Positions 13,048-33,102 of a stretch of 52,288 nt of DNA are shown here, one piece after another (the first letter of the stretch is position 1; every line of letters begins with the position of its first letter). The notes below the pieces were generated by a model. That model had not been told where the DNA came from. It did not search any database and was given only the letters and a program-made list of their open reading frames with translations. A program made the position numbers and the translations under genes. Source of the DNA: Escherichia phage vB_EcoM_Bp10; the sequence record MN122072; one strand, written 5' to 3'.

Positions 13048-14496
13048 ATGGCAATTCCAATTTCCGACATCATCCAGGTCAACATCGCGGTAAGTCCTAA
13101 CGCTGTTGCCGTGGAAGGTTTTGGTCCTCTTCTGTTTCTGAGTAAAGAGTTTACTCCAACTCCGGGCGAAGCTGTTCCTGTTCGCCAGTATACTAGCATG
13201 GCTGCTGTATCTGCTGATTTCCCATCTGGTGAAATCTATCAAGCTGCATTAGCATGGTTCTCTCAGAAGCCAACTCCAAAGTATTTCCTCGTGGGTGCTA
13301 TTACTCATGAAGATGTTACTCTGGCAACTCCTGGTACTGTAACCGCATCTTCTGCTGCGACCCTGGAAACCATTAATGCAGTAACTAATGGTGTTCTGTC
13401 CATCAATATTAATGGCGTTGATAAGTCCACTGCACCTATCAACTTCTCGTCTGCAAAAGACTTTGCTGCTGCTGCATCAATGATTAATGCCGCATTTGTT
13501 GCTGCTGACATTCCTGCAACTGCTTCGCAGACCACAGGCACTTTCAAAATCACTACTAACGACACTGGTTCCACTGCTATCATTGGTAACGTGTATGGTT
13601 CTGCTGCTGAGGCATTTGAGTTAGATTCTGCTTCAAGCCCTGTACATGTTCAAGGTACTGATGAAGTGTCTATCGGCACCGACCTGAATGCAATCTTGAA
13701 CTCTGCGTTCGACTTCTTCTTTGTTGCTATTGACCGCAAATATCGTGGCAGTGCTGAGGGTAATAACCAGATGACTGTTGCTAAGTGGGCAGAAGCAAAC
13801 GGCAAAGTGTTTGGTTGGGCCGATAGCGACCCGCAGATTCTGGTTCCTGGTGCTGAGTCTAGCTTTAAGCGTGCCAAAGAGCAGAACCTCCAACGTACTT
13901 TGTTGGTGTATGATGCGTCTGATAATGGCGACGAATATCCAGAAGTTTCTATCCTGGGTCGTGCATCTACTGTTAACTTCAACGTTGCAAACTCCTCGCT
14001 CGTTCTGGCGTTTAAGCAAGGTCCAGCTATTAAGACTGCTGACTTGTCCCCGAACCAGCTTGCTGCACTTGAGCGTGTGAATGGTAACGCATTCATCAAC
14101 GTTGGTGGGAACACCATGTTCTACAACGGCAAGATGGCTGACGGTACTTGGTTCGATACCGTGCAGGGTGTTTCTTGGTTAACCTCCAAGATTCGTGCTA
14201 ACGTGTTCAACCTGTTCTACACTTCCACTACCAAGATTCCTTGGACAGACACTGGTGTTGCACTGGTGAACCAGCAAGTAACCCTGGCTCTGGAACTGGC
14301 AGTGACCAATGGTCTGATTGCCCCAGGTTACGACAATGAAGGCAACTTCTACCCTGATGGTTACAAAGTCTTGTCTACTGACTTGGCTCTTATGCAATCT
14401 CAGAAAGGTGCTCGTATCTGGGAAGGCACTTCCTTCATTGCAATTGGCTCTGGCGCATTGCAGGGTGCAGTTATCTCCGGCAACTTCGTTCAGTAA
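13048..14496 (+). CDS. tail sheath protein (candidate)
   Basis: 482-aa protein followed by a 151-aa tube-like protein, a frameshifting chaperone and a tape measure, the standard contractile-tail order. Confidence 0.55.
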   Translation: MAIPISDIIQVNIAVSPNAVAVEGFGPLLFLSKEFTPTPGEAVPVRQYTSMAAVSADFPSGEIYQAALAWFSQKPTPKYFLVGAITHEDVTLATPGTVTASSAATLETINAVTNGVLSININGVDKSTAPINFSSAKDFAAAASMINAAFVAADIPATASQTTGTFKITTNDTGSTAIIGNVYGSAAEAFELDSASSPVHVQGTDEVSIGTDLNAILNSAFDFFFVAIDRKYRGSAEGNNQMTVAKWAEANGKVFGWADSDPQILVPGAESSFKRAKEQNLQRTLLVYDASDNGDEYPEVSILGRASTVNFNVANSSLVLAFKQGPAIKTADLSPNQLAALERVNGNAFINVGGNTMFYNGKMADGTWFDTVQGVSWLTSKIRANVFNLFYTSTTKIPWTDTGVALVNQQVTLALELAVTNGLIAPGYDNEGNFYPDGYKVLSTDLALMQSQKGARIWEGTSFIAIGSGALQGAVISGNFVQ

Positions 14497-14506
14497 GGTG
14501 CGATAA

Positions 14507-14962
14507 GTGAAACAATATTCTTTCTATAATACCGACCTCATTATCGACGGTGCTCGTGTAGATGGTTTTACTTCTGGTAACTCTATCATCACTGCTCGTC
14601 GTAACGCACCTCAACACCTGCCTGTTATTGACGCGTATGGTAAGTTGGCTGTAGCTACTACGGCTGACTTGTCTGGTACTATTACTTTCCCGCTTCTGCA
14701 AACCGCAGACTGGAACGAAATCCTGTACAGCCGTGCTCAGTTAACTCAGGCAACTGGTCTATCTGGCAACAAATCTCTGTGGCAACCGCTCCAGATTCAG
14801 ATTGTTGACAAGATGGGTGATGTGCTGGTCAACGGTGTAAACGGCGCTATCTTGCAGCAACCTGCAATTCAGCGTGGTGTGTCCTTCACGTCTAACGTGT
14901 GGTCTATCTTTGTAGAACGCCTCCAGATTAAGACTGGCTCTTATCCGGAGATTGGCGTTTAA
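14507..14962 (+). CDS. tail tube protein (candidate)
   Basis: 151 aa, between sheath-like and chaperone genes. Confidence 0.55.
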   Translation: MKQYSFYNTDLIIDGARVDGFTSGNSIITARRNAPQHLPVIDAYGKLAVATTADLSGTITFPLLQTADWNEILYSRAQLTQATGLSGNKSLWQPLQIQIVDKMGDVLVNGVNGAILQQPAIQRGVSFTSNVWSIFVERLQIKTGSYPEIGV

Positions 14963-14973
14963 TTGGAGTAAGT

Positions 14974-30660: not shown

Positions 30661-30903
30661 CTTCGCTCGCTTTATATTATAATTTTTTATTTTTTGGGAC
30701 GGCGAGGAGGGGGAAGTTGTGACATTATTTTTTTAAAATTTTTATCTCCGAGGAGGGGAAGCCCAACGTCCTATCGGACTTAAATACGGTCCCTACTCCA
30801 ACTTTTTCCTACAGCCTATCGGCTTTCAAACAACACCAAGATAGGCGCTTCGCTTATAAGTCAAGGTCAAAGGCAATCAGAGTACGCTGTTGTAACGTGC
30901 TAG

Positions 30904-30927
30904 TCTCACCATTAGTTGGTTGTGATT
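30904..30927 (+). promoter_or_regulatory. copy of conserved motif, candidate phage promoter
   Basis: tctcaccATTAGTTGGtTGTGatt, about 60 bp upstream of the RNA polymerase start. Confidence 0.4.
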
Positions 30928-30987
30928 ATGAATAGGCTACGCAAGTCTAATCCGTTTCAGTTAAATCATAATCAATTGGAGACTATC

Positions 30988-33102
30988 ATGACTAATGAAG
31001 AATATCGTGCACTGGCTGCTGATGGCGCTCGCTTGAAAGAAGAAGGCCAAGGTTGGAAAGATGTGCTCGATACGATGGACCGTTGCAACCAGATGGTAGA
31101 TGAAATCACCTCCGCTACACAATCCGAAACTAAAACCGAAACTAACTTGGAGACTCGCAAAATGACAACTATCTCAACTCAAACTATCAAATCCGTTGTC
31201 CCTGCTATCACTGCTCTGGTATACCGTGCCAAAGAGAAACAGAATTACATGCAGCCTCAGACCTGTGCTATTGCTGCTCTTGCAATCTTTAAGATGATGA
31301 CCTCATTCACTCGTGATGATGTTGTTCCTGCAATTGCAATGGTTGAACTGGCTTCTGCTTCTATTGCTGATGCCAACCGTTATAACAACGATTTGAAAGC
31401 AATGCACTATGTTGACCCAGCTATCAACCTCATTGGTTTGGCTAAGCACTTTGGCTTCATTACCATGAACGAAGACAAGTCATTCCAACAAACTGATACA
31501 TGGGTTGAACTGGTTACAACCAAAGACACAGCAGTGCCATTCACTGAGCGTGTTACATCTGAATCTCGTCGCAAGCCTTTCGTTAAAGGTGGCAAAGTTA
31601 AGCCATCCAAAACTCTGAAAGCTGCAATCGAATTCCTGCAAGATACTGAGTACCATGTGGAGACTGAGATGGTTCGCATCATTCAGTCCATGCTTGAGCA
31701 ACGTACTTATGGTGGCTTGCAGATGCCAGAAGCAATCCAGACTGAACTCCATGTTTGGAACAATGCTGTAGCAATGATGAATCAGGATAAGCTGTATTCT
31801 GACTACTTTGCTGATAACCGTGGTCGTTTGTATCACGTAGCATGTGCTGGTCCTAACCCACAATCATCTGACTTTGCTCGTTGCTTGTATTCTCACAATG
31901 TTGAGAACATCGTTAAGAAGTTTAACGAAGATGGTTCTACTACCATTGCATACAACATGTTCATGGCAGAGCTGGAAGATATTTCTGGTGGTGAATGGTG
32001 CAGTGCTAAGCGTTTAACTTATGTTGCTCAGAATCCAGCTGGTTCACTTGCTCGCATGATGAACATGCCTAAAGCTGAACGTCCTTCTAAGCCATTCACT
32101 TATGTTCGTCTGGCTCTGGATTGGTTCAAGTTTGAGACTACAGGTGAATGCGATTCTCGTGTAGGCTTTGGCTTAGATGCTAAATGTTCTGGTACTCAAT
32201 ATCTGGCATTCATTGCTGGTAATATGGAAATGGCTCGTGCAACAGGTCTGGTTGATTCTGAGACTAAAGCATCTGACCCATACCAGTTGAGTCTTCGTGA
32301 ACTGTTGAAGCTGCTGGACAAGTCTTCAATGAAACCATCTCCTGAAATCATGGATGAATTCTTGAATCCGAAAGCTGGTCGTAAGTTTATCAAAACTCCG
32401 TACATGGCTATTCAATACGGTGGTGGTAAAGCTGCATTAACTGGTTCTTCTGACTTCATCAGCTACATGACAGAAGCGCTCCAGATTCCTATGGAGAAAG
32501 CTGAGGCATTTGCTGAACTGTGTGTGGAAGCAATCCATAACGCATTGGGTGCTAAGATTAACATGTTCATTGAGAAAGCTGCTGAGGCTGCATACAACCG
32601 TTGTGTTGAACTCAACAAAGAGTACATCACATATCGTCACACTGATGGTCAGGTTGTAATGAAGCCTTGCTTCCCATCTCGTGAAATCTGTGAGGCATTC
32701 AGCATCCGTGTTGACAGTCAAACTCGTGTTATCTTTGGTCAGATTCAGGAGAACAAGCCTTGGACCATTCGTGAATCCAATCCAACTAAAGAAGAATTCA
32801 AGCGTACTTTCGTTGTTAACTACATTCAAGGCATTGATGCACTTGTTGCTCGTACCGTTGCAGTTAAAGCTAAAGAAGCTGGTCTTCGTGGTTTTACTTC
32901 AATCCATGATTGTTTCCGTTGCTGCTTAGCTGATGCTCCACGTATGATGGAAGTTATTCGTGCAGCATATGTTGAAATCTTTGTAACCAACAATCAATTC
33001 GAGAATCTGTCTAAGCAACTTGGTGGCATTCAGATGTATCATGAGAACATCGTAACCGAAGAGCTTCTGATGAGCGAACACGCTTACTACTTCTGTCAAT
33101 AA
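30988..33102 (+). CDS. single-subunit (T7-type) DNA-dependent RNA polymerase, compact
   Basis: Motif A GLDAKCSGTQY, motif B RKFIKTPYMAIQYGGG, motif C FTSIHDCF. Start at ATG 30988 with GGAGA 5 nt upstream. Confidence 0.8.
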   Translation: MTNEEYRALAADGARLKEEGQGWKDVLDTMDRCNQMVDEITSATQSETKTETNLETRKMTTISTQTIKSVVPAITALVYRAKEKQNYMQPQTCAIAALAIFKMMTSFTRDDVVPAIAMVELASASIADANRYNNDLKAMHYVDPAINLIGLAKHFGFITMNEDKSFQQTDTWVELVTTKDTAVPFTERVTSESRRKPFVKGGKVKPSKTLKAAIEFLQDTEYHVETEMVRIIQSMLEQRTYGGLQMPEAIQTELHVWNNAVAMMNQDKLYSDYFADNRGRLYHVACAGPNPQSSDFARCLYSHNVENIVKKFNEDGSTTIAYNMFMAELEDISGGEWCSAKRLTYVAQNPAGSLARMMNMPKAERPSKPFTYVRLALDWFKFETTGECDSRVGFGLDAKCSGTQYLAFIAGNMEMARATGLVDSETKASDPYQLSLRELLKLLDKSSMKPSPEIMDEFLNPKAGRKFIKTPYMAIQYGGGKAALTGSSDFISYMTEALQIPMEKAEAFAELCVEAIHNALGAKINMFIEKAAEAAYNRCVELNKEYITYRHTDGQVVMKPCFPSREICEAFSIRVDSQTRVIFGQIQENKPWTIRESNPTKEEFKRTFVVNYIQGIDALVARTVAVKAKEAGLRGFTSIHDCFRCCLADAPRMMEVIRAAYVEIFVTNNQFENLSKQLGGIQMYHENIVTEELLMSEHAYYFCQ

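Follow-up and report, generated by a model that had tools for sequence, protein, structure and literature searches.

Phages that join a myovirus-type contractile tail to a single-subunit RNA polymerase (RNAP) of the T7 type are not new, and the title of the 2008 paper on phiEcoM-GJ1 reportedly already named myovirus morphology plus a podovirus-like RNA polymerase. They are placed by ICTV, the international committee for virus taxonomy, in the family Chaseviridae, the profile of which gives double-stranded DNA genomes of 52-56 kb with a G+C content of 39.3-52.5%, myovirus morphology and a large single-subunit RNAP (PMC12842549). The group has likewise been described as combining a contractile tail with a T7-type RNAP in the reports on Myduc (PMC6872899) and PYps23T (PMC8762354) and in a review (PMC8472413). 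Contractile tails have been seen by electron microscopy in the relatives ST32, phiEcoM-GJ1 and Y2 (PMC6266442, PMC12842549), the tail of ST32, a close relative of the phage considered here, being a long one (PMC6266442). In the current analysis we have considered a stretch of 52,288 nucleotides from Escherichia phage vB_EcoM_Bp10 (sequence record MN122072), the whole of which is referred to as the window. An original prediction, made from the letters alone, had pointed out in its interval 13048-33102 a contractile-tail module together with a T7-type RNAP, and had suggested a mosaic or under-described lineage. This unusual architecture proved to be recognisable from raw sequence alone; the literature has known the pairing since 2008, an ICTV family is defined by it, and it therefore raises no new question.

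What the window holds is almost certainly one whole phage genome, circularly permuted, from a virulent myophage of E. coli that belongs to the genus Carltongylesvirus in the family Chaseviridae (phiEcoM-GJ1 group). A megablast search with the interval 13048-33102 matched 69 phage records. The best of these are Escherichia phage vB_EcoP_Bp7, with an identity of 97.9% over 89% of the query, and then vB_EcoM_JL1 (94.3%), flopper (93.1%), ST32 (91.2%) and phiEcoM-GJ1 (88.6%). The remaining half of the window is 96.0% identical to Bp7, and for the two halves the phage records with DNA-level matches number 69-76, of which several reach 93-98% identity. Both flopper and Bp7 are assigned in the RefSeq taxonomy to Chaseviridae; Cleopatravirinae; Carltongylesvirus. 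When the whole window is compared with Bp7 (blastn), 96.5% of it is alignable and collinear, and identity multiplied by coverage comes to 0.94. Positions 52288 and 1 are contiguous in Bp7 and, because the last base thus runs into the first, the window is a circular permutation of one complete genome. With cut-offs of at least 70% nucleotide similarity over the genome for a genus and more than 95% for a species (quoted in PMC11292799), the window falls within the genus, and membership of the same species as Bp7 is borderline, 0.94 lying just under the species line. The window phage is a near-species-level relative of vB_EcoP_Bp7.

Every family property that can be checked from sequence is present. 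The length of 52,288 nucleotides and the G+C content of 44.2% fall within the ranges of the family; a large single-subunit RNAP is encoded at 31162-33102 (PF00940, T7 fold, intact motifs); a DNA polymerase (DNA_pol_A, 49521-51455) and a helicase/primase (Toprim and DnaB-like helicase, 47689-49455) are also encoded. As for morphology, the gene content of this isolate (sheath, tube, baseplate and Pam3-like capsid) fits that of a myovirus. The members of Carltongylesvirus (phiEcoM-GJ1, Bp7, JL1, flopper, ST32 and Mangalitsa; subfamily Cleopatravirinae) resemble the window in their one-strand gene order, size of 52.3 kb, G+C content of 44.2% and single tRNA. They have the same tail module, RNAPs of 92-99% amino acid identity and DNA of 88-98% identity, and the differences are at the strain level only. 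Nothing speaks against this identification, and the weak points are confined to mechanism. The pairing of contractile tail and T7-type RNAP is therefore already known and ordinary within Chaseviridae. It had been predicted to be uncommon, which holds for phages at large, such an RNAP being carried by about 94 of 50,697 phage records, and does not hold within Chaseviridae, of which it is a published hallmark.

All large open reading frames (ORFs) of the window lie on the plus strand, which is also the strand of the tail, lysis, reductase and RNAP genes, motif copies and hairpins described below. Starting at about 30.3-30.9 kb, the place at which the records of the relatives open, the gene order is the single-subunit RNAP, small early genes, a T7-style replication set (single-stranded DNA-binding protein, primase-helicase, family-A DNA polymerase, 5'-3' exonuclease and ligase), terminase, portal, a Pam3-like capsid, the contractile tail from sheath to three fibres, lysis genes and the beta subunit of ribonucleotide reductase. 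The G+C content is lower, 38-42%, at about 30-42 kb.

The tail module begins just outside the interval with a tail completion gene (12535-13047; phrog_12771, 1.6e-85), whose flopper counterpart gp43 is labelled alike. It is followed by the contractile tail sheath of 482 residues (13048-14496; PF11863 DUF3383, 1.2e-65; phrog_205, 3.8e-102), which shares similarity with solved myophage sheaths, namely those of cyanophage Pam3 (8hdr, 1.4e-17) and XM1 (gp6, 7kh1, 7e-15). The tail tube protein of 151 residues (14507-14962) matches a PDB entry named 'Tube protein' (9mt4_P, 9.1e-11) and gp40 (9c39, 1.6e-10), and in addition the Pam3 tube (8hdr, 0.005) and phrog_280 (3.3e-32); its match to PF11681 KPP10_Orf10 (3e-4) is under the Pfam cut-off. 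The best match of the major capsid protein is also to Pam3 (8hdt, 1.5e-32). The particles of Pam3 and of Vibrio phage XM1 (8hdr/8hdt/8hdw and 7kh1) thus have a sheath, tube, capsid and baseplate plug that are sequence homologues of those of the window, and a small, simple baseplate gene set in common with it. These homologues are distant (E-values of 1e-17 to 1e-32) and, unlike Pam3 and XM1, the window phage has a nuclease and transglycosylase protein instead of a plain tape measure. The calls of sheath, tube, chaperone and baseplate are all backed by homology to Pfam, PHROG or PDB entries; those of sheath and tube, whose failure on homology search had been named beforehand as a possible refutation, stood the search through the matches to Pam3, XM1 and 9mt4_P.

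The RNAP gene (31162-33102) encodes 646 residues (PF00940, 1.3e-19; phrog_414, 4.8e-98). A phmmer search of PDB with the single sequence gave nothing at E<=1e-3, T7 RNAP included, and the enzyme is therefore considered to be very divergent. Twenty homologues (34-78% identical) were combined in a profile, and this matched T7 RNAP at 1.9e-19 over T7 residues 316-850. In this alignment D339 (codon 32176-32178) stands with T7 D537 in motif A; R407, K411 (32392-32394), Y419 (32416-32418) and G420 stand with T7 R627, K631, Y639 and G640 in motif B; H582 and D583 (32908-32910) stand with T7 H811 and D812 in motif C. The residues of all three motifs are invariant in the 20 homologues. An AlphaFold2 model (pLDDT 90.7, pTM 0.84) was compared with PDB by Foldseek, and the 23 best matches are all T7 RNAP (E-value 3e-19, TM 0.60, about 15% identity), followed by mitochondrial RNAPs. 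As judged from these alignments the catalytic motifs are intact, and the original prediction of a single-subunit RNAP with intact catalytic motifs is borne out, with the T7 fold in addition.

The relatives start at the ATG at 31162, which gives the 646 residues, and a TTG at 30916 is unlikely as the start. An alternative in-frame ATG at 30988, with a GGAGAC Shine-Dalgarno sequence of its own, gives 704 residues. A segment of 177 nucleotides (30985-31161) reads in frame into the RNAP without a stop and would add 58 N-terminal residues; it is missing in Bp7 and present in Mangalitsa and in a 704-residue database protein (P0001, a cluster of 271 sequences). The start used by the relatives is favoured, and the ATG at 30988 is possibly also a start. 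Only about 160 RNAP residues precede the part aligned with T7 residue 316, and the N-terminal, promoter-binding domain is about half the size of that of T7.

The RNAP of T7 (Autographiviridae, PF00940) has the fold and the catalytic residues of motifs A, B and C in common with that of the window, from which it differs in sequence (about 15% identity) and in length (883 residues against 646). In both phages the RNAP gene is early, transcription is unidirectional and a promoter-like motif of about 23 bp, ending in an AT-rich part and then GG, is repeated. The candidate promoter of the window is unrelated to that of T7, TAATACGACTCACTATAG. Unlike T7, the window has a copy of the motif upstream of the RNAP gene itself and, by its genes, a contractile instead of a podovirus tail. 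T7-family RNAPs outside podoviruses are also encoded by Xanthomonas phage Xp10 and its relatives, which are siphoviruses with non-contractile tails. Their enzymes are among the nearest RNAPs outside the present group (22% identity); the genome of Xp10 differs from the window in organisation and in size (44 kb).

Within the group, the place of the RNAP gene in the genome, either where the record starts or beside tail and lysis genes, is the same even in relatives whose RNAPs are only 32% identical. Those relatives with an RNAP of 32-39% identity are phage genomes of 52-57 kb (Aeromonas, Shewanella, Vibrio), and in a Pseudomonas relative baseplate, fibre and lysis genes are situated immediately upstream of the RNAP. 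The 94 or so records mentioned above carry near-full-length relatives, and outside this group the nearest RNAPs share an identity of 20-24% only. Since the position is conserved down to 32% identity and the identity outside the group is this low, the RNAP is considered to be an old, vertically inherited part of the lineage. The pairing of tail and RNAP is ancestral to Chaseviridae and not a recent mosaic. The mosaic reading of the original prediction, that a myophage has lately captured its RNAP gene from a T7-like podophage by horizontal transfer, is very unlikely. It would account for a transcription and replication gene set that is T7-like in kind and order, from the RNAP to the ligase, and for the similarity to both myoviral and podoviral proteins that has been noted in a review (PMC8472413), but a recent graft does not agree with the divergence of the enzyme, for which phmmer finds no PDB match, nor with its conserved place in the relatives. 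There is also no break of composition limited to the RNAP gene, the low G+C content spanning the whole early region of 30-42 kb. Because the RNAP is divergent, its position conserved and no composition break confined to the gene, any chimerism must be older than the diversification of the family; that the group arose as a chimera long ago is plausible and has been remarked on earlier (PMC8472413).

The other suggestion, of a phage group not yet characterised, does not stand up to whole-genome comparison, which places the window in the ICTV family Chaseviridae at 0.94 to Bp7. It draws on the many genes of the relatives that are called 'hypothetical', on the podovirus-style name of Bp7 with its tape-measure-like gene called a tail fibre, and on the chasevirus promoters, which have not been verified experimentally (PMC12842549). 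With 69-76 phage records matching at the DNA level, with a family, subfamily and genus established by ICTV, and with genomes and electron micrographs described from 2008 onwards, we give this possibility hardly any weight. A chimeric contig of a myophage and a T7-like phage is barely credible. Between the tail and lysis genes and the RNAP that follows them there is indeed non-coding DNA full of repeats, a typical place of mis-joins, but the same order across the junction is found in the independently sequenced flopper, JL1, MLP1, TH33 and PYps23T and in a Pseudomonas contig, and 96.5% of the window is in collinear order with Bp7.

The junction of tail and RNAP genes is probably made up of the collapsed ends of a terminally redundant linear genome. 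The records of phiEcoM-GJ1 and ST32 start a few hundred bases upstream of the RNAP gene and that of Bp7 at its first base, and all three finish after the reductase gene, so that the tail module and the RNAP are found at opposite ends. They adjoin in the window because its assembly is circularly permuted, being opened elsewhere than the records of the relatives. Chaseviridae are known to have linear genomes with direct terminal repeats of about 2.3-3 kb (PMC12842549), a terminal repeat of 2,339 bp has been shown for PYps23T (PMC8762354), and the Y2 record has the RNAP gene at both ends. The ORF at 1-336 is the 3' part of a gene starting near 51758 (gp30 of Bp7) and, as the window begins inside a gene, its boundary is arbitrary.

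The point at which the relatives' GenBank records begin or end is an AT-rich non-coding stretch of about 0.6 kb (30270-30900) with a terminator-like hairpin and tandem repeats. The hairpin and its T-run (30293-30308, consensus scan) would mark the end of the late gene block. A repeat search of the AT-rich DNA at 30341-30654 revealed a 38-nucleotide repeat, in two copies 203 nucleotides apart containing AATATTGCTACA, and three tandem repeats of 26 nucleotides (ATTGnTACnATATTAATGAGACTnnA) at 30566-30654. On inspection the 26-nucleotide repeats did not fit the -35/-10 pattern of sigma-70 promoters. The repeats of this region might serve as promoters of early genes, in packaging or the recognition of ends, or as signals for replication.

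Chaseviridae are described as lytic, though integrase-bearing relatives sit in or beside bacterial chromosomal DNA. A contig of 4.8 Mb of Hafnia alvei (NJFP02000002.1, 2778075-2800021) has bacterial genes, an integrase, holin, endolysin, an RNAP of 53% identity and early genes. A Pseudomonas contig of 76.6 kb (SRR28603075_2) has baseplate and fibre genes, lysis genes, an RNAP of 38% identity, 7 kb of small genes, an integrase and ahpCF; its RNAP protein is also recorded in a 6.26-Mb contig of Pseudomonas brenneri. 'Chaseviridae' prophages in Enterobacter cloacae are listed, and not analysed, in a survey of 2026 (PMC13612085). When representative bacterial genomes were scanned for the RNAP, one locus was identified, in a metagenome-assembled genome of Ekhidna.

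Six segments of the window (140-490 nucleotides) are without a match in Bp7. Apart from that at 30985-31161, described above with the RNAP, these are 378-807, 34489-34974, 37264-37497, 45898-46039 and 46687-46879, which are probably strain-specific accessory genes or insertions of the homing-endonuclease type. The first of them includes an ORF of 142 residues (384-812) with no Pfam match. The record of Bp7 itself (NC_079181.1), the closest relative, carries a podovirus-style name (vB_EcoP). Its sheath and tube are entered as hypothetical proteins and its tape-measure-like gene as 'putative tail fiber', and the public record would seem to be wrong here in both name and annotation.

A family of 23-nucleotide motifs, tCTGaAACATTAGTTGGAtgTGA, has been identified by a repeat search of the window. 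Its core of 18 nucleotides, with up to three mismatches, has 7 matches against 0.11 expected, all on the plus strand, and the 11 hits of a position weight matrix (PWM) in the window are again all on this strand. The strong copies are situated upstream of the RNAP gene (30903-30925), after a terminator-like hairpin (33358-33373, consensus scan) where the best copy is found (33420-33442), between genes at 37538-37560 and 43564-43586, as two copies at 41455-41477 and 41596-41618, and at 51674-51696. With the last of these the strong copies end, and there follows a run of exonuclease, ligase, dUTPase, terminase and structural genes that crosses the window junction. The weight matrix adds three weaker copies, one directly before the gene of the terminase large subunit (4835-4857, PWM score 18.7), one in the 74 nucleotides that separate the tape-measure-like gene from that of the hub (19344-19366, score 15.8) and one at 34279-34301. 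Of the seven strong sites six, and of the three weak sites one, are clear of plus-strand ORFs of at least 40 residues; the rest overlap only small ORFs or the last codons of a gene. Strong sites for which the sequence or ORF map further downstream was read leave a leader of about 60-100 nucleotides or more before the next start codon. A role as ribosome-binding context is unlikely at such a distance, and one as an RNA-processing hairpin is disfavoured, the motif being no palindrome on inspection.

The motif is also found in the relatives. In 21 related loci with an RNAP of 42-99% identity there are 92 hits on the plus strand against 1 on the minus strand. A copy follows the RNAP stop codon by 50-340 nucleotides in nearly all of these loci, and in 14 of them a copy lies 60-270 nucleotides upstream of the RNAP start. 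The matrix of the window motif gave no hit in eight loci with an RNAP of 39% identity or less. Four of the eight carry a variant, (A/G)GATTAGCTCGGAtTT, on the gene strand, the first copy being 130-780 nucleotides after the RNAP gene in three of the four, and relatives with an RNAP of 36-39% identity carry GATTAGCTCGG in place of the window motif. Being strand-specific, intergenic, of the right length and divergent in step with the RNAP, the motif fits a promoter of a single-subunit RNAP, and we lean, by a little, towards tCTGaAACATTAGTTGGAtgTGA as the candidate promoter of the chasevirus RNAP. Eight consensus phage promoters have been hypothesised in silico for the relative PP101, their sequence being given in a figure (PMC6989608). 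A full-text literature search for the motif core ATTAGTTGG brought up only unrelated papers among the matches listed.

In the transcription programme that we propose, the host RNA polymerase would first express the phage RNAP, which would then take over at the promoter of about 23 bp, with seven strong and three weak sites all along the gene direction. The copy at 30903 before the RNAP gene would provide positive feedback, an autocatalytic loop. Early and middle units would start at 33420, 37538, 41455/41596 and 43564, and the late block of about 25-30 kb (capsid, tail and lysis) would give very long transcripts that begin at 51674, and perhaps also at 4835 and 19344, and stop after the reductase gene at the 30293 hairpin. 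In tail assembly the chaperone and its -1 frameshift product, described below, would put the tape-measure-like protein together within the tube, with the sheath polymerising around it as in other myophages. At 646 residues the RNAP is one of the smallest enzymes of the T7 family. If the promoter is confirmed, this compact enzyme with its half-size N-terminal domain would make up with it a transcription pair that is new and orthogonal, and the enzyme might have practical value as an orthogonal expression tool. The present motif map can be tested directly.

Several weak points concern this mechanism. The ICTV profile lists the promoters of the chasevirus RNAP as not yet identified (PMC12842549). 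A sigma-70 scan of 30200-34600 gave no more sites than shuffled sequence, with none convincing upstream of the RNAP gene. The strong motif copies cluster in the early and middle region and the structural block of 25 kb has two weak copies only, for which reason late transcription could use another signal. The window is without a terminal overlap, a collapsed assembly hiding the terminal repeats of the virion. It is, moreover, from position and size only that we infer the tape-measure role of the product of 15592-19317.

The gene following the tube encodes the short, zero-frame product of a tail assembly chaperone (14974-15432; PF21822 Phage_TAC_15, 2.9e-18; phrog_11820, 2.5e-75). It contains a slippery heptamer, T TTT TTC (15330-15336), which is an in-phase X XXY YYZ, and translation in the -1 frame from it gives an extension of 92 codons (15330-15608), whose stop ends at 15608 and overlaps the start of the next gene. 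Both flopper and Erwinia phage Y2, the latter a member of another genus, have this heptamer in the same place and share a conserved -1 peptide, FPDI(K/R)YFLHRPIIEDSSLC..LLLFHDILDLRKKL. Since the -1 peptide is conserved in both, the stretch past the zero-frame stop is considered to code in the -1 frame, and a -1 frameshift at 15330 is predicted, in agreement with the frameshifting chaperone of the original prediction. This frameshift has no entry in the annotation tables of flopper, Y2 and Bp7. A read-through product that would join the chaperone to the next gene, which lies in the same frame, is rejected as a TAA occurs within seven codons.

The next gene (15592-19317) encodes a tape-measure-like virion protein of 1241 residues (PF09588 YqaJ, 4.3e-13; PF01464 SLT, 3.1e-13; phrog_19855). 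It comprises a domain of the YqaJ/lambda-exonuclease type (residues about 460-650), a glycine-rich hydrophobic stretch (about 780-850) and an SLT lytic transglycosylase domain (1061-1152). Its position after the chaperone, length, hydrophobic stretch and SLT domain fit a tape measure, and the Mangalitsa orthologue is labelled as one; no tape-measure family model matched the protein. The tape measure call of the original prediction thus stands as to position, size and SLT domain, and is left without a family match and with an atypical nuclease domain. This domain (window about 16970-17540) shares similarity with the exonuclease of PDB entry 3syy (4.6e-7) with the D..ExK motif aligned, and its PD-(D/E)XK motif, YSPDG...WEHK, is intact. 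The protein is 47% identical to gp76 of Y2 from end to end, and its nuclease region ranks with the parts that are best conserved. A nuclease in a presumably injected tail protein is unusual.

The baseplate genes follow, beginning with a hub (19391-20500; phrog_196, 6.3e-52) and a Dit-like tail or baseplate protein (20500-21387; PF21821 Dit_like, 2.9e-20; phrog_17031). A baseplate plug similar to Pam3 gp18 (21384-21746) has a weak match to PF22479 Pam3_gp18 (1e-3) and a match to phrog_16481, a virion structural protein (1.7e-68). The central spike (21718-22533; PF18352, spike N-terminal domain, 2.2e-18) corresponds to gp35 of flopper, labelled 'baseplate spike'. Two baseplate wedge proteins, one of the gp25-like or sheath-initiator type (22533-22904; phrog_120, 1.2e-29) and the other of the Baseplate_J type (22880-24037; phrog_6, 4.8e-56), have counterparts at equivalent positions in the Pseudomonas relative, with matches to PF10934 Sheath_initiator and PF04865 Baseplate_J. 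A baseplate protein of the DUF2612 or wedge-1 type (24039-24680; PF11041, 7.7e-13; phrog_587) is followed by three tail-fibre genes (24680-25828, 25829-27202 and 27212-28249; phrog_8147 twice and phrog_2097), with Laminin_G_3 and Gp10_C domains.

Inside the interval there are also genes that do not belong to the tail, namely a holin (28182-28598; PF05106, phrog_126), an endolysin (28616-29170; PF07486 Hydrolase_2, phrog_938) and the small (beta) subunit of ribonucleotide reductase (29170-30270; PF00268, phrog_86). Among the window proteins scanned there was no Pfam match for the large subunit of ribonucleotide reductase, and the beta subunit gene may therefore be an orphan.

The single tRNA of the window, a tRNA-Leu with the anticodon CAG (45019-45115), was called at 97 nucleotides, which is long even for class II; the presence of a tRNA is variable among the relatives (PMC8762354). 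Beside the late Hydrolase_2 endolysin, a second cell-wall hydrolase (Peptidase_M15_4, 39925-40323) is encoded in the early and middle region. T7 lysozyme, a regulator of T7 RNAP, is encoded at roughly the same position as this hydrolase.

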